Positions 2,854 through 31,879 are shown, counted from the first letter of the stretch. The stretch: 35,458 nt of DNA from Candidatus Gottesmanbacteria bacterium (GCA_016218275.1 JACREK010000001.1:1-35458); one strand, 5' to 3'. Notes: generated from the sequence alone by a model not told the origin. Numbers and translations: made by a program.

Positions 2854-4557
2854 TTACTCCTGAGCTACTCTAAGTATTTCTTCAATGGTGGTAATTCCTT
2901 CTATAACTTTGAGGTATCCATCCTGTTTCATCGTAATCATTCCTTCTTCTCTTGCCTGTTTTTCTATATCATCAGCCGAGCCTCTTTCCAAAATCAGTTT
3001 GGCAGAAGCTTGGGATATGCTGACAACTTCAAAAATTCCAATCCTGCCCAAATATCCGGTATTGTTGCATTCTTTGCAGCCCCGTCCGCGGAAAAGTTCT
3101 AATTCTTTTTTATCCGGCGGATATAGATTGCCCAAAATATTTTTAATATCAGCGGCTACTTCCAAAGAGGGAGTATAAGTTTCTTTACAGACGGTACAAA
3201 TTTTTCTGGTAATTCTTTGAGCTTCCACCGCATTTAATACCGAAACCACCAAAAATGGTTCGGCGCCAAGGTCAAGCAGTCTGGGTATAGCTGTTGCGGC
3301 ATTGTTGGTATGCAGCGTGGAAAAAACCAGATGTCCCGTTAAAGCTGCCTGGATGGCCAGATTTACGGTTTCATTATCACGTATTTCACCAACCAAAATG
3401 ATATTGGGATCCTGCCGCAAAAAAGACCGCAAACCAGAGGCAAAAGTGAGCCCTGCCGTCGGATTTACCTGCACCTGGTTCAGCCCGACTATCTCATATT
3501 CCACCGGATCTTCCAATGTCACTATATTCACTTTCTCCGTATTAAGCTTGGTCAGGAGGGAATAAAGAGTTGTCGTTTTTCCGCTTCCTGTCGGCCCGGT
3601 CACCAGAATAATTCCGTGCGGTCTGGTGACTGCAGTTTCCAGATTTTTCAAAGATATGCCGCGCAGTCCCAACTCATTCAAACTGGGAATTCCGCCTGTC
3701 TTTTTCAACAGTCTCATCACCACTTTCTCGCCATGCATGGTAGGAAGTGTTGAAACCCTCAAATCCACTTCTTCTTGGGCAAGCTTGAAATTAAAACGTC
3801 CGTCTTGAGGTATACGGCGTTCGTCAATCTTCATATCCGAGAGAATTTTTATTCTGGAAATAACCGCTTCATTCATCGCTTTGGGAAGAGCAAGCTTTTC
3901 ATGTAATATTCCGTCTATTCTATAGCGCACGCGGACTCTTCCCTCCTGAGGTTCGATATGGACATCTGAGGCGCGACTGCGAACGGCATACTCAAGGATT
4001 GTAGAAACAATTTTGGCAATCGGAGCCTCTTTTATAATTTTCCCGATATTTTCCGCTTCAATAGTTTTTACTTCACCTTCACTTGTCTCTTTTAGTGCCT
4101 CTGATACTTCCGTTGATAATCCTGCGGAATATTCCTCTTCTATCTTTTGCATTATTTCGCCTTCTTTGGCCAAATAGGGAACTATGGATTTACCCGCCTT
4201 CTGTTCCAGGAATTCAATCAGAGGAAGATCCATCGGCTCTACCATCGCCACTTTCAGCTTATCTTCTTTTTTATCCAACTCAAAAGGAATCAGTTTGTAT
4301 TTTCGGGCGACCGGCTCTGGTATAAAGTTGAGAATCTCGGGAGAAATACCCCGGCCAACCAGGGAGACATAAGGAACGTGTACAATTTGGGCTTTTGACT
4401 GCAGGAGCGTATCCTCATCGACAATATTTTTGGAAAGAAGTATTTCTGAAACAGTACGGCCTGAATTGATGGCAGAAACTTTTATTTCCTCGGCCATCGC
4501 TTCTGTGATTCGACCGCTGTCTAATAAAGTAGTTAGAATTTGTTGATCAACATTCAT
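2854..4557 (-). CDS. pilB: PilB/GspE-type pilus assembly ATPase
   Basis: 567 aa. It has a GspE-N-like N-terminal domain, Walker A GPTGSGKTT, LVGEIRD, TGHLVFSTLHTNNA, and a tetracysteine cluster CTVCK...CKEC. Confidence 0.9.
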   Translation of the reverse strand: MNVDQQILTTLLDSGRITEAMAEEIKVSAINSGRTVSEILLSKNIVDEDTLLQSKAQIVHVPYVSLVGRGISPEILNFIPEPVARKYKLIPFELDKKEDKLKVAMVEPMDLPLIEFLEQKAGKSIVPYLAKEGEIMQKIEEEYSAGLSTEVSEALKETSEGEVKTIEAENIGKIIKEAPIAKIVSTILEYAVRSRASDVHIEPQEGRVRVRYRIDGILHEKLALPKAMNEAVISRIKILSDMKIDERRIPQDGRFNFKLAQEEVDLRVSTLPTMHGEKVVMRLLKKTGGIPSLNELGLRGISLKNLETAVTRPHGIILVTGPTGSGKTTTLYSLLTKLNTEKVNIVTLEDPVEYEIVGLNQVQVNPTAGLTFASGLRSFLRQDPNIILVGEIRDNETVNLAIQAALTGHLVFSTLHTNNAATAIPRLLDLGAEPFLVVSVLNAVEAQRITRKICTVCKETYTPSLEVAADIKNILGNLYPPDKKELELFRGRGCKECNNTGYLGRIGIFEVVSISQASAKLILERGSADDIEKQAREEGMITMKQDGYLKVIEGITTIEEILRVAQE

Positions 4558-4625
4558 GGGCAGGAAATTAAAATCTTAAATCCAAATATCGAAATCACAA
4601 ATAATATCTAAATGACAGTCAACCT

Positions 4626-4694
4626 GTCATCCCGACCAAAGTGGAGGGATCTCTAAAAATATTTAGAGAGATTCCTCGACAAGCTCGGAATGAC
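4626..4694. repeat. GTCATYCCGA-family palindrome (core)
   Basis: GTCATCCCGACCAAAGTGGAGGGATCTCTAAAAATATTTAGAGAGATTCCTCGACAAGCTCGGAATGAC. Weaker arm similarity extends outward to about 4590-4735. Confidence 0.8.
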
Positions 4695-5473: not shown

Positions 5474-5498
5474 GCAAACGTAGGCAAACTAGGCAAAC
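5471..5498. repeat. Tandem TAGGCAAAC(G) x3
   Basis: Three head-to-tail copies at 5471, 5481 and 5490. The first contains the holB stop codon. Confidence 0.8.
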
Positions 5499-6257
5499 GA
5501 AACGGGTTCGTTTTATATATGATGAACCGGTAGAATTACTCAAGAAGAAGATGTTTTATATACGATAACTTCCTCTGATAATCTTTCTGATCCAGAACAA
5601 ATTTTTGATAATTCTCCCTTGAGATATTAGCTATTATCATTCTTGGGTCAACTATATTAGATTTTTCTTTTCCCAGATAGATCAAATAAGAAGAGTAGGG
5701 ATAGTCCTCAGGTTTTTCAACTAAATAGCCAGTAACTGGATTAAGATGAATATAACGAGAAAGATGGAAAAGTTGCTCATCTGTTTCTACTCGTACCGCT
5801 TTGAAATTTCCCTCAAAGACCGGACCTTTTGTCTGAGATTTTAGATTAAAATAATGAGCATAACTATTAGAAAGTCTCTGAATAAATTGTCTTATTCCAT
5901 TGTCCATCTCTTGTTTGAGGGTAAAATGAAAATGGGTAGGCATGAGACAAAAATTAATGATGGTAACGGTTCTTTTCTTAAAATCAACCGAGTATTTGTT
6001 TTTATGGCTACGATAAATTGAAAATCGTATTGGAGGATTGGCTTGGAGATAATATTCTATCGCTTCAAAGAATAACTGATAATCCCACTTTGTATTGAAA
6101 ATTGGGATTGTGCGAACGGAACGATTGAAAATATGATAGACTTCACCACTCGCTAAAATCGTCCTTCTATGTCCCATCGATTTTTACTCTACCTTAAATT
6201 TACCGGTTCGTCAATAGGAAAACGAACCGGGATCGTTAAGACTGAACCCGTTTCGTT
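5496..6257 (-). mobile_element. RAYT/IS200-like unit: Y1 transposase gene bracketed by two nested inverted-repeat pairs
   Basis: AACGAAACGGGTTC (5496-5509) is the exact reverse complement of GAACCCGTTTCGTT (6244-6257). The inner pair is TGAACCGGTA (5523-5532) against TACCGGTTCG (6201-6210), matching 9 of 10. There is an extra local hairpin, CCGGTTCGT (6203-6211) with ACGAACCGG (6222-6230). Confidence 0.7.
5536..6177 (-). CDS. IS200/IS605-type Y1 (HUH) transposase, REP-associated tyrosine transposase (RAYT)-like
   Basis: 213 aa. HUH motif in PTHFHFTL. A C-terminal Tyr motif RYIHLNPV is followed by PEDYPYSSY, as in RAYT/Y1_Tnp proteins. Confidence 0.8.
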   Translation of the reverse strand: MGHRRTILASGEVYHIFNRSVRTIPIFNTKWDYQLFFEAIEYYLQANPPIRFSIYRSHKNKYSVDFKKRTVTIINFCLMPTHFHFTLKQEMDNGIRQFIQRLSNSYAHYFNLKSQTKGPVFEGNFKAVRVETDEQLFHLSRYIHLNPVTGYLVEKPEDYPYSSYLIYLGKEKSNIVDPRMIIANISRENYQKFVLDQKDYQRKLSYIKHLLLE

Positions 6258-8328: not shown

Positions 8329-10344
8329 ATGTCCTATCTTAATCTTTCCATTGGCGCCGGACTTTTGGCCGTCTTTTACGGATTATTCCAGACATGGAAA
8401 ATTTTAAAACTTCCAAAAGGAACTGCCGATATGGTCTCAATTTCCGATGCAATTGCAGAAGGAGCAAGCGCCTTTTTAAACAGACAATATAAAACTGTAG
8501 CTATTTTTGCTGTTGTCATATTTTTTATTCTCTATTTTACTTTGGGACTGCTGTCAGCCGTTGCTTTTGCCATCGGTGCAGTATGTTCGGCAGTTGCCGG
8601 TTTTATCGGTATGAATGTTGCGGTACGCGCCAATGTCCGCTGTACAGAAGCTGCCAAAAAGGGATTATCTGAGGCCTTATCTGTAGCTTTTGCAGGAGGA
8701 AGCGTTACCGGTCTGATTGTGGCCGGCCTTGCGTTATTAGCAGTTTCTATTACTTACCTTCTAATTTCTAACCTCCAACCTCTAACCTCCAATCTTCAGC
8801 CTTTGGTTGCCCTTGGTTTTGGCGGATCTCTTATTTCTGTCTTTGCCAGACTGGGAGGAGGAATTTATACCAAAGGTGCAGACGTAGGTACGGATATGGT
8901 CGGAAAAATAGAAAAAGGAATTCCTGAGGATGACCCGAGAAATCCGGGAGTGATTGCCGATTTGGTAGGGGATAATGTCGGTGATGATGCCGGAATGGCG
9001 GCAGACCTTTTCGAAACCTATGTTGTCACCGCTGTTGCGGTAATGCTCTTGGCCCAACTGATGCTGCCTATGTTTAATAATGCGCTTATTTTCCCCATTG
9101 CGGTCGGCGGCGGCGGCATAGTCTCATCAATACTGGGTACATTTTTTGTTCGACTAAGTAGTAATGGTAAAATCATGCCTGCTTTATATAAAGGCCTTAT
9201 CGCTACAACCATATTTTCCGTTTTGATATTTTATTTCATCACAAAAACGCTGATGGATGGCAACGGTTTGTATGAGAGTATAAATCTTTATATTGCGGCC
9301 TTGATAGGTATTGCAGTCACTGTAGGGATGGTGGCAATTACCGAATATTTTACCTCAAAAAATTATTCACCGGTGAAAAGTATTGCTTATGCCGGGAATA
9401 CCGGACACGGTACAAATATTATTGCCGGTCTGGCAATATCCATGAAATCAACATTTCCGCCTATCCTTTTGATAGCTGGAGCAATATTTTCCTCATACTT
9501 TCTGGCAGGACTTTATGGGGTAGCTCTTTCTGCCATGTCCATGCTTTCCCTCACCGGAATAGTGGTTGCCATAGATGCATTTGGACCGATTACGGATAAT
9601 GCCGGAGGAATAGCGGAGATGACCCATCAAAGCGAAAAAGTGAGAAAAGTTACGGATGCACTTGATGCGGTAGGAAATACAACCAAAGCAGTCACCAAAG
9701 CATACGCTATTGCCTCGGCGGGACTGGCGGCTTTAGTTTTATTCGCCAGCTATACGCAGGAATTATCCAAATCAACTACCGGACAATTATCATTTTCGCT
9801 GTCAGATCCAAAAGTCTTAATCGGTCTTTTGATTGGAGCATCACTGCCTTATCTTTTTGGAGCATTGGCGATGGAAGCGGTAGGAAAAGCAGCCGAGGAA
9901 GTTGTACTGGAGGTGAGGCGCCAGTTTAGGGAAATTAAAGGCATTATGGAAGGAAAAGAGAAACCCCAGTACGGACAGGCTGTCGATATAGTTACCCAAG
10001 CTGCAATCAGGGAGATGATACTGCCTGCGAGCCTTCCTGTGATTACCCCGATTCTGGTTGGATTTTTGCTTGGCAGCGCTGCCCTTGGAGGAGTGCTTGT
10101 AGGTACAATTATTACCGGACTTTTTGTCGCTATCTCCATGACTACCGGAGGCGCTGCTTGGGATAATGCTAAAAAATATATAGAAGAAGGAAACCTCGGC
10201 GGAAAAGGAGGCAGTGCCCATCAAGCGGCGGTCACAGGAGATACGGTCGGAGACCCTTATAAAGATACGGCCGGACCGGCAATAAACCCGATGATAAAAG
10301 TGGCAAATATTGTGGCGCTTTTGATCGCGCCTTTCCTTAAGTGA
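8329..10344 (+). CDS. hppA: Membrane-bound proton/sodium-translocating pyrophosphatase
   Basis: 671 aa polytopic protein. Motifs: [63 protein letters not shown] at 8316-8321. Confidence 0.95.
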
Positions 10345-10372
10345 CCTAAGTAACTTAGGTAACTTAAGTGAC
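10336..10372. repeat. CTTAAGTGAC / CCTAAGTAACTTAGG repeat cluster at the hppA stop
   Basis: Direct 10-mer CTTAAGTGAC at 10336 and 10363 flanks the 15-nt palindrome CCTAAGTAACTTAGG (10345-10359). Related copies lie at 14047-14068 and 34304-34325. Confidence 0.7.
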
Positions 10373-10381
10373 TTTTGACTT

Positions 10382-12871: not shown

Positions 12872-12881
12872 CAACGCATTT

Positions 12882-12906
12882 GTCATCCCGAGCGAAGCGA
12901 GGGATC
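12882..12906. repeat. GTCATCCCGAGCGAAGCGAGGGATC half-element
   Basis: Single arm of the GTCATYCCGAG family, in the gyrA-folD gap. Confidence 0.7.
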
Positions 12907-12917
12907 CCATCCGAATT

Positions 12918-13952
12918 ATGAAAATAGATGGTAGACTTATAGCCGAAGAAATCAAAGAAAGACTTAAAAAGGAAGTCGCTTCTTTATCCTCTCAAAACAT
13001 CACTCCCCACCTTGCCGTAATCCTCGTTGGTAATAATCCAAGCTCACTTGTCTATATAAGACAAAAGAAAAAAGTAGGAGAAGAAATAGGAGTTAAAGTA
13101 GTCGTTTATAATTTATCAAAAAGCGATAAAGACACCTCGGATGGTGTGCAAAGCACTCCTCCGAGGTGGAGGAATCTAAAAGATAAACTAATCAACCTCG
13201 TAAATAAATTAAATAGTGATCCATCAGTCCATGGAATCATCATTCAGCGTCCCCTTCCAATAGATATTGGAAAAGATGAATTGGATCGTTTGGTAATACC
13301 AAAAAAAGATGTTGACGGCTTTCATCCCGAATCTCCCTTTACTCCTCCTGTTGCTCTAGCTGTAATAAAAATACTGGAATGGGTCTCTCTGAATTCACCT
13401 GGAAGGAGTCCATACGGCCACCTTCCAGGTGTTGCGAAGCGATTCCTGGAAGGTGAATCTTGGGAAAAATGGTTAAAGAATAAACGAATCTTAGTCATCG
13501 GCAGGGGAGAGACGGCGGGAAGACCTATAGCAGAAACTCTAAAGAAAATTACCGACAAAATCACCATAGCCCATAGCAAAACAGCCAATTTGAAAGAGGT
13601 TTGTTTAGCATCGGATATAATTATTAGCTGCGTTGGCAAGAGGCCCATTTTGCGACGTTCGAAAGGACGTCCGCAAAATGGGCCCTTTATTGTACGACAT
13701 GATATGGTTTCGCCTGATACATTATTAATAGGTGTCGGTCTACACCAGGAAAACGGCAAATTAGCTACAGATTATGATCAGAAAGAAATTGCAGGAAAAG
13801 TAGCTTTCTACACACCAGTTCCAGGCGGGGTCGGACCGGTAAATGTAGCGTGTCTTATGGAAAATTTGATTTTTGCCACTAAGAGCCTGTTTGGAAACTG
13901 TCATTCCGAGCCCGCCCAGCTGGCGGGTCGAGGAATCTCTCAGCTTGTCTGA
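12918..13952 (+). CDS. folD: Bifunctional methylenetetrahydrofolate dehydrogenase/cyclohydrolase FolD, carrying three in-frame palindromic inserts
   Basis: Motifs: LAVILVGNNPSS, DVDGFHP, VIGRGETAGRP, YTPVPGGVGPV. At 344 aa it is longer than the roughly 285 aa usual for FolD. The extra residues coincide with DNA hairpins (see findings). Confidence 0.85.
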   Translation: MKIDGRLIAEEIKERLKKEVASLSSQNITPHLAVILVGNNPSSLVYIRQKKKVGEEIGVKVVVYNLSKSDKDTSDGVQSTPPRWRNLKDKLINLVNKLNSDPSVHGIIIQRPLPIDIGKDELDRLVIPKKDVDGFHPESPFTPPVALAVIKILEWVSLNSPGRSPYGHLPGVAKRFLEGESWEKWLKNKRILVIGRGETAGRPIAETLKKITDKITIAHSKTANLKEVCLASDIIISCVGKRPILRRSKGRPQNGPFIVRHDMVSPDTLLIGVGLHQENGKLATDYDQKEIAGKVAFYTPVPGGVGPVNVACLMENLIFATKSLFGNCHSEPAQLAGRGISQLV

Positions 13953-14012
13953 GAAAATGCTCGCATTTGCGAGAGATCCCTCCACGCGCCTTTCAGGCTT
14001 GGTCGGGATGAC
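13900..14012. repeat. GTCATTCCGAG...TCGGGATGAC long palindrome overlapping the folD 3' end
   Basis: It starts inside folD, encoding CHSEPAQLAGRGISQLV and the stop. It contains the CCCGCCCAGCTGGCGGG core and a GAGAGATCCCTCC arm. Confidence 0.8.
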
Positions 14013-14062
14013 AATGATGAGTATTCAAACAGGCTCTAAGTCAATTAAGTACCTTAGGTAAC

Positions 14063-14989
14063 TTACTTCCTATGAAATCTTTGGTGGATCTCCCGAAGCT
14101 GAGGATTGGTGACATGAGTGTAGATTTGGGTAGTGGCAATGTTTTTGTGACCAAGCATCTCCTGAATGGAACGCAGATCAGCGCCTCCTGACAATAAATC
14201 TGTCGCGAACGAATGGCGGATGCCATGTGGGGTGATTTTAATCGGAAGCCTTCCCTTCCTGGCGTATTTTTCCACAATCCGCTGGATGCTTCTTGCGGTC
14301 AGACGAAAACCTTCTCCGGCTTTTCCTTCTTCTGCCTTCTTTCCGGCATACCTGATAAACAATGGGGCAAAAGCATCTTCCCTGGTTTTCAGGTATCTTT
14401 CCAACCAAAGACAAGCTGAGTCTGATAAAAAAACTACACGGGGCTTACCACCTTTGCCAATAACGCCAAATTCTTTTCTATCAATATTGATTGAATCTCT
14501 ATTAAGTCTGACCAACTCGCTGACCCTAAGACCGGTACTAAAGAGCATTTCCATAATGGCTTTATCACGAAGCCCTTGTGGAGTAGAAATCTCGGGCATA
14601 TTAAGAAGTCTTTCCACCTGTTCTCTGTCTAAAAATTTTAAAGATCTGCTCTCGGCTTTGCCCAATTCTACTTTCTCGGGATTAAGAGCGGCAATATTTT
14701 GGCGAATTAAAAATTTCAAAAAAGCGCGAAGAGCAATTAAATGATAATTCTGGGTGATATGCTTCAGAGTCAAACCGTGCTTGTCTGCAAATCTAGATAA
14801 ATATAATCTAAAAGATCGGATAAATTCCGGAGTAATTGAGGCAATATCTGACAGAGGAGGGGATTGGGAGGCGCCAAACTGTAAAAAACGGTTTAAATAA
14901 TGACGGTAATTCCGGATAGTGAGCTTAGAACAGTTTCTTTCAAGCTCCAGATATACTAAGAATTGGTTGACGGCATCCTCAATGGACAT
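14063..14989 (-). CDS. Xer-type tyrosine recombinase/integrase
   Basis: 308 aa. It has an N-terminal SAM-like core-binding domain (LELERNCSKLTIRNYRHYL). The catalytic domain carries GLRVSEL, HGIRHSFATDLL, LGH, and Tyr in TQIYTHV. Confidence 0.85.
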   Translation of the reverse strand: MSIEDAVNQFLVYLELERNCSKLTIRNYRHYLNRFLQFGASQSPPLSDIASITPEFIRSFRLYLSRFADKHGLTLKHITQNYHLIALRAFLKFLIRQNIAALNPEKVELGKAESRSLKFLDREQVERLLNMPEISTPQGLRDKAIMEMLFSTGLRVSELVRLNRDSINIDRKEFGVIGKGGKPRVVFLSDSACLWLERYLKTREDAFAPLFIRYAGKKAEEGKAGEGFRLTARSIQRIVEKYARKGRLPIKITPHGIRHSFATDLLSGGADLRSIQEMLGHKNIATTQIYTHVTNPQLREIHQRFHRK

Positions 14990-15118
14990 ATAAATTAAAT
15001 TTATTTTGCGATGATACTATCGTCGCAACAATAAATTTGAAATTGTATGACGTTTTTTAACGTCTATACAATTTCTATTTTGCGACATTTGAAGTAGTTT
15101 TGTCAAGATGTTTTATAA

Positions 15119-15307
15119 CTGACCCACCTGCAGTTTGAATATAGATTGTTCTAGTCATCCCGAGCGTAGTCGAGGGATCTCTCATATTTCAAGAATTATG
15201 GATATCTTAAGCTCGTCGCAGTAGAGTTTGAGAGATCCCTCCACTCCCTTCGGTCGGTCGGGATGACGGATGAATTGAGGCTAAACCGCAAAGTGCAGGT
15301 GGGTCAG
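15119..15307. repeat. Nested palindromes: 14-bp perfect IR enclosing a GTCATCCCGAG element
   Basis: CTGACCCACCTGCA (15119-15132) pairs with TGCAGGTGGGTCAG (15294-15307). These enclose GTCATCCCGAG...TCGGGATGAC (15154-15267). Confidence 0.85.
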
Positions 15308-15677
15308 GTTTTATAATTTCTAGCGCAGCAATATGAAATTTTCGATGATCGCCCCTCGGAGCCTCGGGGTAAACATCGCTTGCTTGCCCTGAGCAAGGTA
15401 AAACCGAGCGAAGGGCGAGCAAGAAAATTTTATATGCGAGCTAGAAATGATTCATAAAAATGACCCTCTATAATGCCCTAGAAAGGCTTTTAAATATTTC
15501 AGACGAGGAATTCTTTGTCTTTGTTGTCATTCCGAATTTATTTCGGAATCTATAATAGATCCTGAAACAAGTTCAGGATGACACTGCTGTGTGAGTTTCG
15601 GAAATCTTTCATAACAGATATTTTTCCAGTCGGGAAGAAAATGTGTAAATTAAATGGAAAATTAAAATTTCTAAAGT

Positions 15678-15716
15678 CCATTTTGCGACTGTCAAAACTT
15701 TGACGTTGCAAAATGG
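15678..15716. repeat. CCATTTTGCGAC...GCAAAATGG hairpin element
   Basis: CCATTTTGCGACTGTCAAAACTTTGACGTTGCAAAATGG. It has the same termini as the in-frame folD insert at 13642-13684. The ATTTTGCGA motif also occurs at 15004 and 15078. Confidence 0.8.
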
Positions 15717-15723
15717 ACGCCTT

Positions 15724-15756
15724 GCTTTTACGACATACGTTATATGTCGTAAAAGC
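15724..15756. repeat. Perfect 14-bp stem hairpin
   Basis: Stem GCTTTTACGACATA, loop CGTTA, stem TATGTCGTAAAAGC. Confidence 0.8.
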
Positions 15757-15989
15757 ATTATTGTGCGAACTATTAGCAATTCCGTTCCCTATCTGTCAGA
15801 ATCCCAACTAATTTAGCTTTGAAGTCGGACTTTATTATCTCGGAAGAGAGAATACTTGGTTTTCCAGTCCTAGGAGTATAGAGATGTAACCTCTTCTTCA
15901 TTTATTATTATAATCACTTCCGTATAGTACGTAACTATAGATATATAAGATATATAAAAGGGTTTTCGGTTTTTTTCCATTGCACTCGA

Positions 15990-16178
15990 TTTAGCGCATT
16001 ATTATGCTCTAAACTGTTTATTCTGAGACTAAATAAATAAGTTACTTGCCTCGGGACGATCCCGACGTTACGTCGGGATCACTTTAGGGCTTTATTAGGC
16101 TCTAAATTAATAAGTCCGAAGCTGATTTTAGGCGAATATAAGAAAAGAGTTTAGTTTAGAGCGTTATTATGCTCCAAA
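15990..16178 (+). repeat. Three direct copies of a 24-bp palindromic box, TTTAGNGCNTTATTAKGCTCYAAA
   Basis: Copies at 15990-16013, 16083-16106 and 16155-16178, all in the same orientation. Each has 8-bp inverted arms around an 8-bp AT-rich centre. Confidence 0.8.
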
Positions 16179-16232
16179 TTATTAATTTTATGCGTAAATT
16201 TAGTGTTCAATTCCCCTCGGATCCGTGCTCCA

Positions 16233-16274
16233 ACGATCCAGGATCGTTTCTACGGGAGTTCGATCCTGGATCGT
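16233..16274. repeat. 14-bp perfect inverted repeat
   Basis: ACGATCCAGGATCG (16233-16246) and CGATCCTGGATCGT (16261-16274), separated by a 14-nt loop. Confidence 0.8.
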
Positions 16275-16484
16275 ATCTCATCCGTGAAAAGCTGGAATAA
16301 ATATCGTGAAAACTATCCACATTCGCTCCCTTCGTCGCTGATGCTCCTCAGGGTAAACCCTTCGGTCGCTCAGTGTAAACACATTTTATTACTATACTAT
16401 TACTATAGGATATTATAGGCCTGTGTTATATCAAACTATATCACCCTTCATCCCTTCACCACTTCCCTCTTCCCCGCCGAAACA

Positions 16485-16556
16485 ATCAATTAATTATCCA
16501 ATTATCAAATTATCCAATTCTCAAATAATCAAATATTTTTGATTGGATAATTTGTC
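16485..16556. repeat. ATTATCCAAT-family palindromic element, copy A (right arm truncated)
   Basis: AATTATCCAATTATCAAATTATCCAATTCTCAAATAATCAAATATTTTTGATTGGATAATTTG, ending at the stop codon of the 16561 gene. Confidence 0.85.
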
Positions 16557-16560
16557 TCCC

Positions 16561-20299: not shown

Positions 20300-22030
20300 T
20301 CAGTCCAAACCTTGATATACTCTCAAACTTCTCAGTTTATTCTCAATCACAGTAGTATCAAAAAATAATAAATGAAGCAATTCTTTGGTCATGGATACGG
20401 CGGCTTCAAATTCCGGCTGCACCACGCTGTCCACTCCCAGACTCTTTAATTTTTTTTGGTCTTCGTCAAAATGAGTCCGGCAGATTATCCTGATGTTGGG
20501 ATTAAGACTTAAAACATTCAGCACTACGGTTTCCTGGGTATGCCTGTCTGCGTATGCTAATATAACCGCCTTTGCCTGTTTTATTTTGGTAAATTCCAAG
20601 ACGTCTATTTCGGCAGGATCACCATAGATTACATTCACCCCCGAAAGTCGAAGAGATTTCACCAATTTATGATTATAATCAACTACTACATAGGGAATCT
20701 GGACAATGGAGAGAGCCCGGCAGATATATTTTCCTACTCGCCCGTGTCCCAAAACAACCACGTGATTGGAAAGGTCTATATCCGAAATCTGGGATGCGGG
20801 ATGAAATTTTGACAAAAAATTTGTCAGAAATCTGAATCTTTTCTTAAATATCTGATTTAATCTGTAATAAATCTTATCGCTGACTGTCAGAATCGGAACG
20901 GAAATGATAAGCGAGATGAATGAAACAGAGAGAATTGTCATATAAACTTTATCATCGATAAGACGGGAAGTTAAACCAAGCACGGCGATTATAAAAGCAA
21001 ATTCACCTACAGAAATCAGGGAAAAACCGGAAAGCACTGCGGTTTTGGGATGATAACCCAAAAGAAAAACCAAAGCTGCAGAAATAATAAATTTTAAAAG
21101 TACTACTACTACTACTAATCCCAAAATATTCATCCCTTGGGAAAATATAAAAAGCGGATTGAGTATAAATCCCAAAGAAACAAAAAATACGGATGAGAAA
21201 AGATCTCTTAAAGGTCTGACTTCGGCAAAAATACCGTGATGAGTCGAGGAAGACGAGAGAATGATTCCTGCCACAAAAGCGCCCAAAGGGAAAGACAATC
21301 CCAAAAATTGAAACAAATAAGCAAAAACTAGACAAAAAACTACAGCTGCCAAAAGGAGAAGTTCACGGCTCTTCAAATCGGCAATTTTCTCAAGGATAAA
21401 AGGCAGCGTTTTTTTTCCCAGAAAAATTACCAGCATAAAAGATGTAAAAGCAAAGAATATGCTTTTTGAAAAAAGAAATATGTTGCCTATCCCACTCCCT
21501 TCCCCTTTCAAAATAAGTCCCACGGTCGGCAAAATTATGATAAGCGGCAATGTATATAAATCCTGCATGAATAACCAACCGGAAGCAATCTCTCCGTGCA
21601 AAGTCTCAAGTTCTCCCTTATCCGATAAAGTCTTTAAGGCAACAGCCGTTGATGACAGGGAAAAGACGCAACCCAAAAACAGTGCCGTATAAAAATCAAT
21701 TCCCATAAGAGGGAAAATAATTATAAAAACGATTATTGTCAAAAGAACCTGAATTAAAGATCCGAATATGACCACCTCACCCAAATCTTTTAACTTAGTC
21801 AAAGAAAATTCCAGTCCCAAAGTAAAAAGGAGCAGAACTACTCCAATTTCGGCAATACTTCTTATGGTTTCGGCAATGGCAAAATAGTAAGATATGAAAT
21901 TACCAAAAATTACTCCGCCCAAAAGATAGCCCACCAAAATCGGCAATTTAAATCTTTTCGCAATCACTCCACCGACAAAGGCTGTCAGAAGTACAATAAC
22001 TAAATTACGAGCAAAAATAAAATCAGACAT
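20300..22030 (-). CDS. Kef-type (CPA2) cation:proton antiporter with C-terminal TrkA-N/RCK domain
   Basis: About 12 TM segments followed by a Rossmann motif, VVVLGHGRVGKYICRAL. The track start at 22039 is a TTG inside a repeat, so ATG 22030 (MSDFIFARN) is preferred. Confidence 0.8.
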   Translation of the reverse strand: MSDFIFARNLVIVLLTAFVGGVIAKRFKLPILVGYLLGGVIFGNFISYYFAIAETIRSIAEIGVVLLLFTLGLEFSLTKLKDLGEVVIFGSLIQVLLTIIVFIIIFPLMGIDFYTALFLGCVFSLSSTAVALKTLSDKGELETLHGEIASGWLFMQDLYTLPLIIILPTVGLILKGEGSGIGNIFLFSKSIFFAFTSFMLVIFLGKKTLPFILEKIADLKSRELLLLAAVVFCLVFAYLFQFLGLSFPLGAFVAGIILSSSSTHHGIFAEVRPLRDLFSSVFFVSLGFILNPLFIFSQGMNILGLVVVVVLLKFIISAALVFLLGYHPKTAVLSGFSLISVGEFAFIIAVLGLTSRLIDDKVYMTILSVSFISLIISVPILTVSDKIYYRLNQIFKKRFRFLTNFLSKFHPASQISDIDLSNHVVVLGHGRVGKYICRALSIVQIPYVVVDYNHKLVKSLRLSGVNVIYGDPAEIDVLEFTKIKQAKAVILAYADRHTQETVVLNVLSLNPNIRIICRTHFDEDQKKLKSLGVDSVVQPEFEAAVSMTKELLHLLFFDTTVIENKLRSLRVYQGLD

Positions 22031-22034
22031 AAGA

Positions 22035-22138
22035 ATCAATTATTCAATTATCCAATTATCAAATTATCCAATTCTCAAATAATCAAATATTACTTATTGG
22101 ATAATTTGTTGATTTGAGAATTTGTTGATTGGATAATT
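22035..22138. repeat. ATTATCCAAT-family palindromic element, copy B (complete)
   Basis: The left arm is AATTATCCAATTATCAAATTATCCAATTCTCAAATAATCAAATATT. The right arm contains the 41-mer TGGATAATTTGTTGATTTGAGAATTTGTTGATTGGATAATT (22098-22138), identical to 23111-23151 and 31189-31229. Confidence 0.9.
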
Positions 22139-22940
22139 CATTTCTTTCTAACCCATCTAATACTTTTTTTAATTCCACTGGTAATTTACTCTTTACCTCA
22201 ATTTCTTTTTCAGATACCGGATGTTTAAACTTAAGATAACTTGCATGTAAAAATAGTCTCGGGCAAAAAATTTTATCCTCCCTGTATACTTTTCTGCCGG
22301 CATAAAACATATCCGAAACGATACTGTGCCCTAAGTATTTTAAGTGTACCCTTATTTGATGTGTCCGTCCAGTTGCGGGAGTTACCTCCAGAAGGGAAAA
22401 TGTGTCATTGCGATCCCGTGCAACGGGAGAAGCAATCTTTACAGATTCATATAGATCGCCACGCAACGCTTGCGATGACAAAGGGATAAACTTATAGTAA
22501 GCAATAACCTTATATTTTGTAGTTGCTTCTTTTCCTGCCGGCAGAATCCCAAATCTTTCCCTATTCCATGGTAATCGGCCTATATTTGCTCTTACTTCAC
22601 CCGCTGGGGGTTTGACATCTCCGTGCACCAAAGCGGTATATTTTTTGCTGATTTTTCTGTCTTTAAACTGGGTTTGAAGATTGAAAAAGGCTTGGGGGGT
22701 TTTGGCGATTATCAGAAGTCCGGATGTTTCCTTGTCGAGCCGATGAACAATTCCCGCTCTTTTATAAAAATCACTTTCTTCATCAATTTTTAATTTTTCA
22801 TTTTTAATTTTTAATTTTTCATCCGCCCAATCTTGAATTGTTTCACCAATTACAGATTCGGCCTTATTTACTACAACTTGGGCAGGCTTATTTATTACTA
22901 AAAGTGTTTCATCTTCAAAGACGATGGGGATATCCAGCAT
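22083..22940 (-). CDS. RluA-family pseudouridine synthase with an in-frame repeat insert and a repeat-encoded C-terminal tail
   Basis: Catalytic motif HRLDKETSGLLIIAK and TGRTHQIRVHL. The last roughly 18 aa (NELSNQQILKSTNYPISNI) are read from element B. Confidence 0.85.
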   Translation of the reverse strand: MLDIPIVFEDETLLVINKPAQVVVNKAESVIGETIQDWADEKLKIKNEKLKIDEESDFYKRAGIVHRLDKETSGLLIIAKTPQAFFNLQTQFKDRKISKKYTALVHGDVKPPAGEVRANIGRLPWNRERFGILPAGKEATTKYKVIAYYKFIPLSSQALRGDLYESVKIASPVARDRNDTFSLLEVTPATGRTHQIRVHLKYLGHSIVSDMFYAGRKVYREDKIFCPRLFLHASYLKFKHPVSEKEIEVKSKLPVELKKVLDGLERNELSNQQILKSTNYPISNI

Positions 22941-23153
22941 AAATTATCTAATTATCCAATTCTCAAATAATCCAATAATCAAATATTTTTGATTGGAACC
23001 TATCTCAAAACCTCGAAAAACTATATTGTTCGAACGTAGTGAGAACTTCTCGCTGGAGTTTATCCCGAGCGAAGTCGAGGGACTCGAAGAATAGGTTTTG
23101 AGATGACTTCTGGATAATTTGTTGATTTGAGAATTTGTTGATTGGATAATTAT
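22941..23153. repeat. ATTATCCAAT-family element, copy C/D, split by an inserted second element
   Basis: The left arm is 22941-22997 and the right arm is 23111-23153. See the mobile_element 22998-23110. Confidence 0.85.
22998..23110. mobile_element. 113-bp MITE-like insertion with 12-bp terminal-proximal inverted repeats and a TGGA target-site duplication
   Basis: ATCTCAAAACCT (23002-23013) pairs with AGGTTTTGAGAT (23093-23104). TGGA at 22994-22997 and 23111-23114 flanks the insert, whereas intact copies read GATTGGATAA. The interior carries TATCCCGAGCGAAGTCGAGGGAC. Confidence 0.7.
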
Positions 23154-23512
23154 CTCTTCTCCCTCTTCCTTTCACAGGAAACGCAGTACAATGCGGTGGG
23201 TTTGACGGCAAGTCTGTCTGTATCAATCATATTTTTGCAGGACATACATTTGCCGTAAGTGCCTTTTTTTATCCTCTCCAAAGCGATCTTGATCTCCTCC
23301 ATATGCAGTCTCAACTCTCTTTCCAGAGCCTCCATTCTCTCATGAGAAATCTCTTCTTTAGCATCGGTGTCAGAAGCAGCATTATCATTTAACCTGTCCG
23401 GATCGGAAAACGGATCCTGTGATTTAAGCGAGGATATATTCACCGTTATCCTGTCTTTCTCTTTTGTCAGATGATCCGCAATCTTTTTCAATACATTTAA
23501 TGGAAATCTCAT
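23150..23512 (-). CDS. DksA/TraR-family C4 zinc-finger protein
   Basis: 120 aa: a coiled-coil region, then CMSC...(17 aa)...CVSC. Confidence 0.8.
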   Translation of the reverse strand: MRFPLNVLKKIADHLTKEKDRITVNISSLKSQDPFSDPDRLNDNAASDTDAKEEISHERMEALERELRLHMEEIKIALERIKKGTYGKCMSCKNMIDTDRLAVKPTALYCVSCERKREKR

Positions 23513-24267
23513 AGTTTTGCCTGTCTGATTATTTTAATTCGCCTCCATAAAGGAACCGCAACGGAAATCAAAATAATCAATGCGCCTAATTGTCTAAGGC
23601 TGAATATATATAAGTATATCGGGTAGACCTTTAAAAATTCAAGAAGGAAAATGATTATTGAGAGAATTGCGGCAAAAAAAAGACAGACTATCCCTTGGGG
23701 CCATTTCTTCCGTTTAACTTTTCCCCAAACCCATTGGAGAAAACAGAAAAGAAGAAAAATAAGTATTGCTTCATATAATTCCACCGGATGATAACGGCCT
23801 GTTTGGCCGATAATTCTTACCCCCAGTATAAAATTGGTTTCTTTTCCGAAACTTGCCCCTCCGAGTTGCTCCCCTATCTTTGCCAATCCCAATGCAAGAC
23901 TTGCCGAAAGAGCAAAAAGATCGGAAAGATGGTAAAAATCATATTTCTTCTTCCGGGCATACCAGTAAAGAAAAATAAACCCTCCCAAAAGTCCTCCTAT
24001 CAGAGATATTCCCGGAGTCTCCCGCACTACTATATATTTAAGAAAATTTGCCCCGAACTGGGGAAAATGGAGAAATATATATACAAATCTGGCCGAAATA
24101 AGAGCAACAATACTTGTGTATAAAAAAGTATCAATATATTCCTCTTCCTTCAGCTCTTCCCTTCCCTCTCTCCAAATCAAAAAAGTTGAAAAAAGAAAAG
24201 CGATACTTAAGAATATTCCGAATGAATAGACATTAAAAGGCCCGATGGTAAAAAGTATAGGTAACAT
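23509..24267 (-). CDS. lgt: Prolipoprotein diacylglyceryl transferase
   Basis: Polytopic protein. It has the N-terminal pattern FNVYSFGIFLSIAF and a YHPVELYEAIL motif. The track start at 24315 is a TTG inside repeat E, so ATG 24267 (MLPILFTIG) is preferred. Confidence 0.75.
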   Translation of the reverse strand: MLPILFTIGPFNVYSFGIFLSIAFLFSTFLIWREGREELKEEEYIDTFLYTSIVALISARFVYIFLHFPQFGANFLKYIVVRETPGISLIGGLLGGFIFLYWYARKKKYDFYHLSDLFALSASLALGLAKIGEQLGGASFGKETNFILGVRIIGQTGRYHPVELYEAILIFLLFCFLQWVWGKVKRKKWPQGIVCLFFAAILSIIIFLLEFLKVYPIYLYIFSLRQLGALIILISVAVPLWRRIKIIRQAKL

Positions 24268-24280
24268 AATATTAAATAAA

Positions 24281-24368
24281 CCAATTATCCAATTCTCAAA
24301 TAATCCAATAATCAAATATTTTTAATTTGAGAATTTGTTGATTTGAGAATTTGTTGATTGGATAATTT
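24281..24368. repeat. ATTATCCAAT-family palindromic element, copy E
   Basis: It shares the 28-mer GATTTGAGAATTTGTTGATTGGATAATT with copies B, D and G. It contains the MFS stop codon (24312). Confidence 0.85.
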
Positions 24369-25601
24369 AATAATATTATTTGCTCTTCGTCTTTGCAAGT
24401 AATGATATGCCCCTATTATCAACACTACAAAACCAATAATCGCTAGTGTCTTCCCTACTCCAATTACATCAGCCAAAAGTCCAGAAAACAAAACCGGTAA
24501 AAGAGAAACTCCTCCAGTAAGTGAAGTCAGTACTCCGTAAACTCTTCCGCGCATATCACTTTTTGAATCTTCCTGAAGGATTGTATTTGCCGGAACACTG
24601 ATGAAAGAGTTAGATACCCCGAGCAAAAAAAGCAAAATAATGACAGCCAGAAAGTTATTTCCCTGACTTAATCTTGTAGCCAGAGACAACAGCAACAGAA
24701 CTACAGCGGAAATACTGATGCCTGACAGTATAATTGACCCTTTCAGAAACTTAATGCCGAATCCCCCTATCCACACTGCACCGATAATTAAACCTACCGC
24801 GGCAGGCCCCATCACCAGATATGATGCTTCAGTCAGGGCAATTCTTAGAACTTTATCCGCAAATCCCGGAGCAAGTACAGCTAAGGTAGAGATAAGTGCC
24901 TGGGAAAAAGTCACCAGAATCAGGCTTTGGGTAATACGCTCGTTGGATTTTATAAAGAGCAGTCCATCCTCAACAGTCTTACCGATGAAATTTAAATTCA
25001 TATGAATATCCAGATTTCTTTTTTTTGGTTTAATCGGAGGCACTAAATAAACAAAATATGTCGCCAGAAGCATTATAAAAGTCATTATCAGATACACGTT
25101 GCGGAAGCCAAAAATATTAAGCATAGGTCCGGAAAGTATAAAACCGGTAATTGTGGAAAGATAAAAACTGACGGTAAAAAGAGAATTAGCGGTCAGAATA
25201 TCGGAAGGCTCAACCAGAATAGGGATAGACGGGGCTTCCGCCGGCACAAATAATTGGGTAACAATTGATATTATTATAATCAGCGCATAAATGGCCAGAA
25301 GATTTGATTGTAAGAAAAATAAAGCCAGAAAGATTAAGACCCGAAAGATATTACAGAAAATAAGCACCAGCCGTTTGTCGAAAAAATCAACCAATCCTCC
25401 CGCAAGAATTCCAAACATAATTGAGGGGATTCCGAATGCCAAAAGCATCAGCGAAACTGCGGTGTTGGAGTGCGTTTGTTGATAAACGCGAATCGCCAGA
25501 ACAAATATCAGCATGTTGAGTGCTATTTGAGAGCTAATTTGTCCCAGCCAAAGATTGCGAAACTTAGGATTTTTTACAACTGCAAGATAAGAACTAATCA
25601 T
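24312..25601 (-). CDS. MFS transporter
   Basis: 429 aa with about 12 TM segments. The C-terminal tail KLSNQQILKSTNSQIKNI is read from repeat E. Confidence 0.8.
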   Translation of the reverse strand: MISSYLAVVKNPKFRNLWLGQISSQIALNMLIFVLAIRVYQQTHSNTAVSLMLLAFGIPSIMFGILAGGLVDFFDKRLVLIFCNIFRVLIFLALFFLQSNLLAIYALIIIISIVTQLFVPAEAPSIPILVEPSDILTANSLFTVSFYLSTITGFILSGPMLNIFGFRNVYLIMTFIMLLATYFVYLVPPIKPKKRNLDIHMNLNFIGKTVEDGLLFIKSNERITQSLILVTFSQALISTLAVLAPGFADKVLRIALTEASYLVMGPAAVGLIIGAVWIGGFGIKFLKGSIILSGISISAVVLLLLSLATRLSQGNNFLAVIILLFLLGVSNSFISVPANTILQEDSKSDMRGRVYGVLTSLTGGVSLLPVLFSGLLADVIGVGKTLAIIGFVVLIIGAYHYLQRRRANNIIKLSNQQILKSTNSQIKNI

Positions 25602-27169: not shown

Positions 27170-27259
27170 TTAATCAACTAATTATCCAATCAACAAATTC
27201 TCAAATTAACAAATACAATATTATTGGATTATTGGTATTTATTGGATAATTGGATAATT
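27170..27259. repeat. ATTATCCAAT-family palindromic element, copy F (divergent)
   Basis: AATTATCCAATCAACAAATTCTCAAATTAACAAATACAATATTATTGGATTATTGGTATTTATTGGATAATTGGATAATT. Confidence 0.8.
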
Positions 27260-27266
27260 CTTTAGT

Positions 27267-27295
27267 TTGACTATTCAAGTTTAACAAAATATAAT
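27267..27295 (+). promoter_or_regulatory. Near-consensus sigma70 promoter driving the tRNA locus
   Basis: TTGACT (27267-27272), an exactly 17-nt spacer, then TATAAT (27290-27295). Confidence 0.7.
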
Positions 27296-27368: not shown

Positions 27369-27574
27369 GCCGCGGTGCTGGAACTGGCAGACCACAAAAT
27401 GGGCGGGTGCTGGAATTGGCAGACAGGTAAGTCTCAAAAACTTATGGCAGACAACTGCCGTGAGGGTTCAAGTCCCTCCCCGCCCACACGTGGCAGGCAG
27501 GCTAAAATGTGAGGGTTTACAGTGAAAAATCATCGCAATGATTTTTTACTGTTCAAATCTCTCCCGCGGCACCA
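27369..27574 (+). other. Split class II tRNA-like sequence enclosing the tRNA-Leu gene (disrupted tRNA or pseudogene?)
   Basis: GCCGCGG (27369-27375) followed by TG and a Leu-like D-arm. At the 3' end: GAGGG (27511-27515), a 36-nt palindromic insert, TTCAAAT, CTCTC, CCGCGGC, A, CCA (27552-27574). No anticodon arm is present. Confidence 0.4.
27401..27486 (+). tRNA. tRNA-Leu(CAA), class II
   Basis: Folded by hand. Acceptor GGGCGGG/CCCGCCC is a perfect 7 bp. U8. The D-loop carries GG. Anticodon stem TAAGT/ACTTA with loop CTCAAAA. The 17-nt variable arm pairs GGCAG/CTGCC. T-arm GAGGG-TTCAAGT-CCCTC. Discriminator A. CCA is not encoded. Confidence 0.9.
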
Positions 27575-28962: not shown

Positions 28963-29613
28963 ATGTCGCCAAAGAATTTACCATTGCCAGATGAAGAAAA
29001 AATCACTACTCTTTGTAAAATTCTCCAGCGAAAATTAACAAAGGAAGAAACAAGGAGAAAATATGCCCCGGCGAAACATATACTCACGCTTTTGGGGGCT
29101 GGAGCTTTTCTCACAATGGCAATGATAGCTCCCAATACAATTCGACTGGGAAAGACATTTTTGCAAAACGATGACTGGAAAAATTGGAAGAAATATAATC
29201 CATTTTACCTGCGTAGAGCCATAAAGCGATTACAAAAAGAAAAATTAGTGGAAATATCTGAAGAAAGTGATCAACAAGTAATTAAACTTACTCAAAATGG
29301 AAAAAGAAAGATCATCAAATATTCTCTTGCCGAATTAGAAATTGCCACACCAAAGTCTTGGGATGGTAAATGGCGAATAGTAATCTATGATGTAACTTCT
29401 GCTAAACATGATCTTCGGACATCTTTTAGAGAGACACTAAAAAGTCTTGGCTTTCTACAACTCCAAGAAAGTGTCTTTCTCATCCCCTACCCGTGTGATA
29501 AGGAGATAACTTTCTTAAGAGAATATTATGGGGTTGGCAATGAGGTAATCTACATCATCGCTCATAAACTGGAAAATGAGGATATATATCGTGATTACTT
29601 TGGATTAGTCTAA
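28963..29613 (+). CDS. PaaX-type protein: N-terminal winged-helix-like region plus Cas2-like ferredoxin-fold domain
   Basis: 216 aa. WDGKWRIVIYDV...RTSFRETLKSLGFLQLQESVFLIPYP matches the beta1 (IVxYDV) and Q-x-SVF signatures shared by the Cas2 and PaaX middle domains. Confidence 0.6.
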   Translation: MSPKNLPLPDEEKITTLCKILQRKLTKEETRRKYAPAKHILTLLGAGAFLTMAMIAPNTIRLGKTFLQNDDWKNWKKYNPFYLRRAIKRLQKEKLVEISEESDQQVIKLTQNGKRKIIKYSLAELEIATPKSWDGKWRIVIYDVTSAKHDLRTSFRETLKSLGFLQLQESVFLIPYPCDKEITFLREYYGVGNEVIYIIAHKLENEDIYRDYFGLV

Positions 29614-31130: not shown

Positions 31131-31136
31131 AATAAC

Positions 31137-31229
31137 AATTATCCAATTATCCAATTTTCAAATTATCCAATAATCAAATATTACTGATTGGATAATTTGT
31201 TGATTTGAGAATTTGTTGATTGGATAATT
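31137..31229. repeat. ATTATCCAAT-family palindromic element, copy G (complete)
   Basis: It contains the identical 41-mer at 31189-31229. The stop codon of the MBL gene (31229-31231) sits at its edge. Confidence 0.9.
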
Positions 31230-31879
31230 CATTCCAATACTACCACCGTCAACTCCGTTGGCAATCTATCTTTTGTAACACTCAATTTGGGAATAGGTTT
31301 TGTGTCCTCTTTACCCATTTCCTTCAGAAATACATCTACACCGGATAAATTGGAAAATATTTTTTGATTATGCAGTTTGGTATTATAATGCATGGGAAGA
31401 ACGATTTTGGGCTCAAGCTGGGAAATCACTTCTGCTGCAATGGGAGCTGATATAGTATAAACCCCACCAACCGGAATCAGCAAAATATCCACTCCGTCAA
31501 GAATTTCCAATGATTTATCATCCAATTTATGACCCAGGTCTCCCAGATGAACCACTGATATTCCGTCTATTTCAATTCTGTAAATAGTATTTTCTCCTCT
31601 CTCTTTCCCATTTTCGTTGTCATGAAAACTAGGGACACCTATGATTTTGATACCTTTCACTTCATATTCACCCGGGCCGGCAATTATAAGAGGACTGCCG
31701 GAAACTCCGCCGCTATAGTTATGATCGTCATGTCCGTGAGAAATTGTAACGACATCAGCTTCAACTTTAGGAAATTTGCTGCCGAGAGAGGCAGGATTAA
31801 AAGGATCGGAAACCAAAGTACCCGATTTTCCTCTTAATTTGAATGAAGAATGTCCAATATAAGTGATTTCCATAGGCAA
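31229..31879 (-). CDS. MBL-fold metallo-hydrolase
   Basis: 216 aa with the HxHxDH motif in ISHGHDDHN. Confidence 0.8.
   Translation of the reverse strand: MPMEITYIGHSSFKLRGKSGTLVSDPFNPASLGSKFPKVEADVVTISHGHDDHNYSGGVSGSPLIIAGPGEYEVKGIKIIGVPSFHDNENGKERGENTIYRIEIDGISVVHLGDLGHKLDDKSLEILDGVDILLIPVGGVYTISAPIAAEVISQLEPKIVLPMHYNTKLHNQKIFSNLSGVDVFLKEMGKEDTKPIPKLSVTKDRLPTELTVVVLE

Follow-up and report, generated by a model that had tools for sequence, protein, structure and literature searches.

Why is an essential gene of an uncultured, ultra-small bacterium from the Candidate Phyla Radiation (CPR) some 59 codons too long, and where does the surplus come from? The gene is folD, in a 35,458-nt stretch of Candidatus Gottesmanbacteria DNA (GCA_016218275.1 JACREK010000001.1:1-35458), which is referred to here as the window. 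An initial annotation had noticed that this folD is 55-60 codons overlong and that the surplus falls in three blocks, each of which coincides with a hairpin; here we refer to the blocks as ins1, ins2 and ins3, and to the additional C-terminal stretch as the tail. The explanation that we regard as probable is that folD of this Gottesmanbacteria-like bacterium was colonised by short hairpin repeats, about 42-115 nt long, from at least three dispersed families (A, B and C). Three copies would lie in frame, in FolD loops between secondary-structure elements, while a fourth, an inverted dimer resembling repetitive extragenic palindromes (REPs), would have landed at the stop codon, so that 17 repeat-encoded codons were gained instead. 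The ribosome would read straight through the repeats, with the FolD fold kept and disordered surface excursions added, and the repeats would act as selfish DNA comparable to REPs and Rickettsia palindromic elements (RPEs) rather than as FolD-specific features.

The folD open reading frame (ORF) is uninterrupted and encodes both FolD domains (Pfam THF_DHG_CYH at residues 3-133 and THF_DHG_CYH_C at residues 186-322), so it is indeed intact and not frameshifted, as had been proposed. The best named homologues, with ~50% identity, belong to Candidatus Gottesmanbacteria (CPR/Microgenomates), and the best solved relative is the 285-aa FolD of C. jejuni (3p2o, E=4e-40). The window FolD is ~59 residues longer than solved FolDs, and the excess consists of the three blocks plus the tail: in the alignment to 3p2o, the extra residues fall at ~69-84, within the region 150-185 and at 242-255, and the alignment stops at residue 323, leaving a 21-residue tail beyond it. 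The invariant residues were retained, as were the catalytic motifs and those of the cofactor, namely Y46, K50 and the D131/D133 motif (DVDGFHP), as were G195/G197/G201/P203 (GRGETAGxP) and PVPGGVGP.

An AlphaFold2 model of the protein, with an input alignment of 116 sequences, had a mean predicted local distance difference test (pLDDT) score of 88 and a predicted template modelling (pTM) score of 0.88, with pLDDT above 90 in the core. The pLDDT falls solely at residues ~67-81, 160-180, 241-255 and 325-344, with values of 49-68 in the insert regions. The first three of these segments are flanked by E60-66 and H82-100, by H144-159 and E191-194, and by E234-237 and E269-272, respectively, and the tail follows the last helix, H305-324. 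The expectation that the inserts would occupy surface loops agrees with the model, which puts them in low-confidence loops between confident elements; the fold is thus predicted to be kept with the inserts at the surface, and read most simply, the model depicts an enzyme that would be functional and would carry four disordered additions at its surface.

It could be argued that the gene is a decaying pseudogene or part of an assembly chimera, with the hairpins being artefacts or neutral debris, as four insertions in a 1-kb gene are unusual and metagenome-assembled genome (MAG) assemblies can mis-join repeats. We consider this very improbable, given the open frame with all invariant FolD residues present, the highly confident modelled core and the gene order gyrB, H+-PPase, gyrA, folD, xerC, which was kept in four relatives. 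Moreover, ins1, ins2 and the tail are identical at the DNA level in the independent MAG GCA_016214705.1 (contig L001), and a homologue of ins3 is present in an independent Logan assembly; the hairpins are therefore not an assembly artefact.

Each of the three excess blocks corresponds to a strong DNA hairpin, and these are the gene's only strong hairpins; the inverted-repeat scan located the arms where the initial annotation had placed them, and the encoded peptides match as well. The arms of ins1 (13133-13141 and 13160-13168) are perfect over 9 nt and reach ~16 bp when extended with one bulge. Those of ins2 (13396-13406 and 13421-13431) are perfect over 11 nt with a 14-nt gap, and a third arm (13445-13455) pairs perfectly over 11 nt with 13419-13429, giving two mutually exclusive 11-bp pairings. 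In ins3, arms of 13 nt are perfect (13642-13654 and 13672-13684), and the arms of the tail element lie at 13899-13941 and 13971-14013. The single-stranded DNA folding energies of ins1, ins2, ins3 and the tail were -15.2, -14.9, -20.3 and -27.9 kcal/mol, with z-scores against dinucleotide shuffles of -6.2, -4.0, -6.8 and -4.0, respectively. The whole window contains 39 hairpins with a perfect stem of at least 9 nt, compared to 2-11 in shuffles, and 4 of the 39 fall within the 1-kb folD. No Rfam family matches the hairpins, the sole match being a tRNA at 27401-27486.

When the DNA that encodes the variable sites was extracted from FolD homologues, it revealed the design of family A, to which ins1 and ins2 belong: (AAAGCGRY)AAAGA-CACC-[7-8 nt]-loop-[complement]-GGTG-GAGGAAT. 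The detected stem variants number at least six (TCGGA.GG, TCGGGGG, CCAGGGG, TGGAAGG, TCGAAGG and ACCGGGGG), every one of which pairs with its own partner arm; the ins2 of the window carries TGGAAGG, and its spacer GCGAAGCGA is similar to the core of family C. The translation of ins1 reads KSDKDTSDGVQSTPPRWRN, 16 codons over the modal homologue length, since site 1 has a mode of 9 residues among the 116 FolD homologues and 25 in the window. Recognisable family A peptides are present in more than 10 of the 116 homologues at sites 1 and 2, with copies at site 1 in the window and in contigs L001, L002 and L005. At site 2, copies are found in L002, where they are nested or in tandem, in L003, where three left ends are present, and in L005.

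Family A is also found away from folD. Intergenic copies were identified in L003 (17294-17343 and 4584-4653) and L005 (1307-1356), and an intergenic element of L001 (12207-12308) has the same three-arm architecture as the window ins2, and the spacer of this element encloses a family C core. Copies in frame were detected in an acetyl-CoA-synthetase-like protein (L084) and in a 708-aa ORF (L052), and reversed copies in a membrane protein (~1060-1096 aa) of L003 and L034, in which one site is common and the others differ. Family A is thus read in differing frames and on both strands (KDTSDG.., KTPRGW.., RHLGW.. and ..ATPEVS), which disfavours selection for a particular peptide.

That bears on a further explanation, at which the inserts would be functional, lineage-specific FolD loops under protein selection, or mRNA hairpins regulating pausing or stability, with the palindromy being secondary. 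Such a role would fit the 100% identity of ins1, ins2 and the tail in two sibling genomes, the length of site 2, which exceeds that of E. coli in every relative examined, and the switch-like look of the two exclusive pairings of ins2. However, the same DNA is present between genes and in unrelated proteins, so the encoded peptides differ between copies; its presence is patchy even among close relatives, and the insert regions were modelled with low confidence. We therefore find a functional origin improbable.

Scanning of a genome collection with the pattern AAGACACC-N20-50-GGTGGAGGAAT returned real family A copies in L034, L052, L067 and L084, among the matches listed; the pattern is too loose and chance matches dominate, thus it gives no taxonomic census. 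Searching with a 100-aa concatenate of the repeat peptides gave one protein match. The four contigs come from MAGs titled "uncultured Gammaproteobacteria" (binchicken assemblies, 36-45% GC), and L034 encodes a homologue of the large membrane protein of the Gottesmanbacteria-like contig L003. Perhaps the label is wrong, or family A may cross phyla.

Family C, which forms the tail, is abundant in the window, where GTCATYCCGA has 21 matches with at most one mismatch against 3.0 +/- 1.6 expected, a seven-fold excess. Its units start with TGTC (2662, 4625, 12881, 13899 and 15525), CGTC (15267, minus strand) or AGTC (15153). The stem, ATTCC/GGAAT, has two A-T pairs first and reaches 9 bp only across a tandem G·A mismatch, the loops range from 3 to ~20 nt and often are themselves hairpins, and a CTCT(C) tail is present in nearly all units. 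Most of the units form inverted dimers, in which the (T/C)GTC tags face outward and the CTCTC tails of the partners pair with each other, and five such pairs were found (2663/2783, 4626/4694, 13900/14012, 15154/15267 and 15526/15582).

The first 51 nt of the dimer at the end of folD encode the last 17 FolD residues (CHSEPAQLAGRGISQLV), followed by the stop codon at 13950-13952. The repeat origin of the C-terminus and of its stop, as initially annotated, therefore stands, although the number of codons is 17 plus the stop and not roughly 20. We infer that removal of 13900-14019 (120 nt) would restore ...GGA AAC TAG, with FolD ending in ...ATKSLFGN at a normal-length C-terminus. The dimer lies within an outer inverted repeat (Table 1), and the dimers 2663/2783 and 15154/15267 likewise sit inside longer inverted repeats unrelated to them; elements thus recur nested within hairpin loops. 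The dimer at ~15150-15290 is mostly missing from L001. Also absent from L001 is a 59-nt segment of the window (4542-4600) at the 5' end of a PilB/T2SSE-like gene (2854-4557, minus strand), which adjoins the family C dimer at 4626-4694.

In family B, represented in folD by ins3, the boundaries are sharper. The native four residues (KPNI) occupy site 3 in 104 of the 116 FolD homologues, while 9 have 14 additional residues, 1 has 16 and 2 have 22, and these carriers are scattered over at least 8 clades of a neighbour-joining tree calculated with the insert columns left out. The window ins3 (AGG CCC ATT TTG CGA ... CAA AAT GGG) is exactly 42 nt long and is lacking from L001, and the filled allele of contig L238 and the empty allele of L239 likewise differ by exactly 42 nt. 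Relatives lacking a single insert, which the initial annotation had proposed to look for, exist in both pairs. The filled allele reads ATTGTGCGAC + 32 nt + ATTGTGCGAC, at which the 10-nt direct repeat resembles a target-site duplication and may instead belong to the element or to a local duplication. The windows's copy and that of contig L004 have a 16/16-nt left arm in common though their flanks have diverged, and their inner stems differ (ACGTTC..GGACGT and ACTTCC..GGAAGT, respectively) while both stay complementary.

The proposed kinship between ins3 and an intergenic element also held: the hairpin at 15675-15719 shares with ins3 the termini CCATTTTGCGAC (12 nt) and GCAAAATGG (9 nt), with a different inner stem. 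This hairpin is kept at the orthologous place in contig L172 of a distant relative (5736-5772), where the flanking proteins are only ~43% identical, and between the two copies the arms are identical and the inner stem has changed compensatorily, which suggests that it is a functional site and not junk. ATTTTGC/GCAAAAT-armed hairpins also lie 10-90 nt upstream of xerC-like integrase genes on three unrelated contigs (window 14997-15038, L218 443-472 and L142 2551-2576), and may represent an operator or a recombinase-binding site. A dif-like reading of the ATTTTGCGAC hairpins was rejected on inspection, as the orientation of the arms about the centre is unlike that of E. coli dif and the spacing is wrong. 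Scanning metagenomes with the family B arms retrieved mainly a different, ~38-nt hairpin, GGGTTC-CCATTTTGC-GACTTATT-GCAAAATGG-GGTCCC, with more than 90 copies on sediment and subsurface contigs (L118-L237, ~47% GC). It is mostly intergenic (46% in long open spans, compared to 79% for random positions), and we did not count it for the mobility of ins3, because the arm motif is common by construction of the pattern.

The sibling genomes indicate how ins3 may travel. L001 is ~99% identical to the window over 13.4 kb, its FolD protein is 89% identical, and the sole divergent coding patch in the comparison is a tract of ~230-300 nt around ins3, with 71-82% identity. We read this tract as a recombination or gene-conversion tract carrying ins3: since it is the only such patch, we conclude that the difference between the siblings arose by recombination with a diverged allele and not by simple insertion or excision in situ. 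A more divergent stretch also lies directly downstream of the insert in the L238/L239 pair. Such short mosaic tracts, with 70-85% identity in near-identical genes, indicate homologous recombination between diverged CPR populations.

At the level of sequence comparison, the dispersal of the repeats across sites, frames, strands and genomes, the presence or absence of an exact 42-nt unit and the association with recombination tracts are documented. Based on these, the repeats pass between related strains by homologous recombination, with the flanking sequence co-converted, and ins3-type units are acquired or dropped whole, at a length of exactly 42 nt and with the 10-nt direct repeat on either side. 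Primary insertion would have occurred on single-stranded hairpin DNA, possibly via an HUH/Y1 or a tyrosine-recombinase enzyme.

Several points weigh against colonisation by mobile repeats. The copy counts cover 35 kb of the genome. The frames open through the repeats number 4-6 of six against ~3 in shuffles, which is a weak enrichment, and we dropped the argument that all six frames are open. Translation of the inserts is predicted from the open frame; in-silico tryptic peptides spanning them are DTSDGVQSTPPR, SPYGHLPGVAK and GRPQNGPFIVR, with ...SLFGNCHSEPAQLAGR in the tail. The length of ins3 is a multiple of three, a point that the initial annotation had proposed to check. The boundaries of ins1 and ins2 could not be fixed, as no near-identical empty site was found for them, and no direct repeat is definable for either. 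No transposition intermediate or cognate enzyme was identified for families A to C, and no parental insertion sequence (IS) was found in the window or in the loci examined. As a further caveat, the spread or loss of ins3 between the siblings appears to ride on the recombination tract, with no clean transposition footprint.

Finally, a local inverted-duplication origin is possible for ins3, and we kept it open because the left arm resembles native codons (ATTTTGCGAC and ATTGTACGAC). At its fullest, this explanation holds that the palindrome originated on the spot, when template switching or fold-back synthesis copied the adjacent native codons (…CC-AAT-ATT-GTR-CGA-C) in inverted and direct orientation, and was then inherited, recombined and repeatedly lost by slippage between the 10-nt repeats, with no mobile element. 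The left ATTGTGCGAC copy in L238 is native sequence, identical to the empty allele of L239; the left arm in the window, GGCCC-ATTTTGCGAC, is similar to its own right flank, GGCCC-TTT-ATTGTACGAC; and the same +14-residue length in 9 of the 12 carriers fits a single ancient event. Hairpins between direct repeats are also classic substrates for precise deletion. On the other hand, the 12-nt arm CCATTTTGCGAC and its complement form an intergenic hairpin 2 kb away, further ATTTTGCGA hairpins exist, the left arm matches that of L004 despite diverged flanks, and the inner stems vary between copies yet remain complementary. As families A and C are clearly dispersed, a mobile origin is more economical for all four additions, and we consider an origin of ins3 in place unlikely.

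Under colonisation by mobile repeats, the enzyme responsible could be sought in the window itself. The 213-aa protein encoded at 5536-6177 matches PF01797 (E=4.9e-6) and, below the cut-off of 80, the NCBIfam model NF047646 "REP-associated tyrosine transposase" (RAYT; E=1e-14, 54.6 bits). It contains HFH and YIHLNPV motifs, and the gene is intact in L001. Its flanks (5496-5538 and 6195-6257) hold a 43-nt imperfect (5496-5538 / 6195-6237) and a 14-nt perfect inverted repeat. However, the CCGGTTCGT hairpins beside it occur at this locus alone and show no relation to families A-C, so that a link between this gene and the three families is unsupported and no more than a lead. A more far-reaching version of colonisation is that families A and B are specified by structure, with conserved termini and stems that vary while paired, somewhat like integron attC sites; a resident enzyme of the HUH/Y1 or Xer type would act on them in the form of single-stranded hairpins, and they would insert by preference into hairpin loops and arm-like sequence and spread through CPR populations in a homing-like manner by co-conversion. 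We find this version quite doubtful.

In-frame palindromic repeats in housekeeping genes are already known from Rickettsia RPEs, Coxiella MITEs (miniature transposable elements with inverted repeats) and intragenic enterobacterial repetitive intergenic consensus (ERIC) sequences (PMC10969869), and intragenic REPs of the GTAG and CGTC types were described in several phyla beyond Rickettsia (PMC3733652). The repeats in folD resemble RPEs (Ogata et al. 2000, as summarised in PMC10969869) in being palindromic, dispersed in intergenic and coding DNA and placed in frame in unrelated housekeeping genes, where they are read in the frame as an extra peptide at fold-compatible positions, with no known transposase. 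Copies of family A lie in FolD, between genes and in three further ORF families, and the in-frame copies in FolD are predicted to leave the fold intact with the insert on the surface. Unlike RPEs, they reside in CPR, their units measure 42-60 nt, or 115 nt for the dimer, against ~100-150 nt for RPE-1, and the termini of family A are conserved while the stems vary and stay complementary. The initial annotation had likened the case to RPE-style in-frame invasion, and this agrees with each insert and the tail having relatives outside folD and with the inserts lying in predicted loops; considering the host, and as the likeness concerns organisation, we class the repeats as RPE-like and not as RPEs.

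Family C resembles, by published description, the CGTC/TGTC-tagged REPs, to which R. conorii RPE-4 and RPE-6 also belong (Di Nocera et al. 2013, PMC3733652). It has a terminal (T/C)GTC tag (TGTC or CCTC being allowed in that class), a stem with A-T in its first two positions and mostly inverted dimers, and it is sited beside and inside genes, where it encodes ~17-30 residues. It differs in its tail, which is CTCTC and not CCA, in its loop of 3-20 nt against 4-5 nt, and in the tandem G·A mismatch of the stem against a stem of 8-9 bp. Similarity to REP/REPIN-RAYT systems (PMC2817692, PMC3116915) lies in short hairpin repeats occurring as inverted doublets and in a single-copy RAYT-like Y1/HUH gene with flanking inverted repeats; on the other hand, families A, B and C have no GTAG tag, the flanks of the RAYT-like gene are not of families A-C, its protein scores below the equivalog cut-off, and classical REPs are mainly extragenic. 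MITEs such as Coxiella QMITE1 and intragenic ERIC (PMC5896051, PMC10969869) are likewise small non-autonomous repeats which can extend or interrupt ORFs in frame, and the 10-nt direct repeat of one filled/empty pair is target-site-duplication-like; nevertheless, a parental IS was not found, the hairpin itself makes up the terminal inverted repeats, and the direct repeat concerns ins3 only.

CPR was not among the phyla surveyed for CGTC-tagged REPs (PMC3733652), and a full-text literature search found no report tying CPR/Patescibacteria to REPs, MITEs or intragenic palindromes, which is no proof of absence. The view that such elements had not been characterised for this kind of genome thus stands as far as that search goes, while intragenic REPs as such were known in several phyla: the kind is already known, and the host group and the families are new. 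The conserved termini with varying paired stems, the nesting in hairpin loops and the recombination-borne spread deserve follow-up.

Table 1. Positions of folD, its repeats and related features in the window
Feature	Position	Strand	Description
folD ORF	12918-13952	+	344 aa, uninterrupted
ins1, family A	13120-13176 (hairpin 13133-13168)	+	AAAGCGAT-AAAGA-CACCTCGGATGG...CCTCCGAGGTG-GAGGAATC
ins2, three-arm family A-type element	13393-13458	+	arms CACCTGGAAGG, CCTTCCAGGTG, CCTGGAAGGTG
ins3, family B	13641-13682 (hairpin 13642-13684)	+	42 nt, 14 codons; RPILRRSKGRPQNG, CCATTTTGCGAC arms
Divergent tract around ins3	13500-13800		71-82% identity to L001, rest ~99%
Family C inverted dimer (tail)	13899-14013	+	TGTCATTCCGAG...TCGGGATGACA
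Outer inverted repeat around the family C dimer	13878-14041		13878-13899 / 14020-14041, 86% complementary
Single family C unit	12880-12907	+	TTGTCATCCCGAGCGAAGCGAGGGATCC, in the 46-nt gyrA-folD spacer
Intergenic ins3 relative	15675-15719		GTCCATTTTGCGAC-[inner stem]-GTTGCAAAATGGAC
Hairpin with ATTTTGCGA arms	14997-15038		directly upstream of the xerC-like gene
XerC-like protein	14063-14989		gene next after folD
RAYT-like Y1 (HUH) transposase homologue	5536-6177	-	213 aa; candidate mobilising enzyme only

Other repeats were observed in the window. A fourth, AT-rich palindromic family of 8-nt units (AATTATCC/AATTCTCA ... TTGAGAAT/GGATAATT) is present at 16485-16555, 22029-22150, 22939-22997, 23111-23160, 24257-24376, 27170-27268 and 31120-31244, at gene boundaries and overlapping the ends of several ORFs, and may contribute codons to N- or C-termini as well. 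The H+-PPase, folD/xerC and M24 peptidase genes each have a short repeat, TAAGTNACYTAAGTAACTTAGGTAACTTA, after their stops (10338-10375, 14037-14065 and 34297-34325), and L001 has an additional 81 nt at the first of these sites. The hairpin at 33580-33615 (13 bp perfect) in the M24 Xaa-Pro peptidase gene is no clear case of a further insertion, as it accounts for only ~4 residues more than in 3q6d.

Between the xerC-like gene and a DUF5656 gene lies a hairpin-dense non-coding region of 1.57 kb (14990-16560), with hairpins at 14997-15038, 15039-15075, 15675-15718, 15723-15757, 16058-16080 and 16233-16274 and three ~45-nt direct repeats at 15990-16199. Gene orientation and GC skew both change sign there, and the region may be a replication terminus or origin; within it, 15108-15630 largely differs from L001 by element-sized indels. 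Further along, 28963-29613 (plus strand) encodes a 216-aa protein with a PaaX central/Cas2-like domain (PF20803, E=2e-18), and the window shows no CRISPR array.

The genomes of CPR bacteria are small, and mobile elements are usually said to be scarce in them. The finding extends selfish DNA inside coding genes, so far described in Rickettsia and a few other phyla, to the Candidate Phyla Radiation, and offers a concrete origin, at the level of DNA, for some of the insertions that are specific to CPR protein lineages, with four events in one 1-kb essential gene. Repeats of this kind make proteins longer, give rise to spurious C-termini and mislead the annotation of CPR MAGs by homology, while the filled and empty alleles, together with the recombination tracts, give a handle on population-level recombination in uncultured bacteria. 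If the structure-specified version were true and also general, essential enzymes throughout the CPR would acquire new surface loops and C-termini by one such mechanism, which would help to explain the frequent and so far unexplained insertions in CPR proteins.

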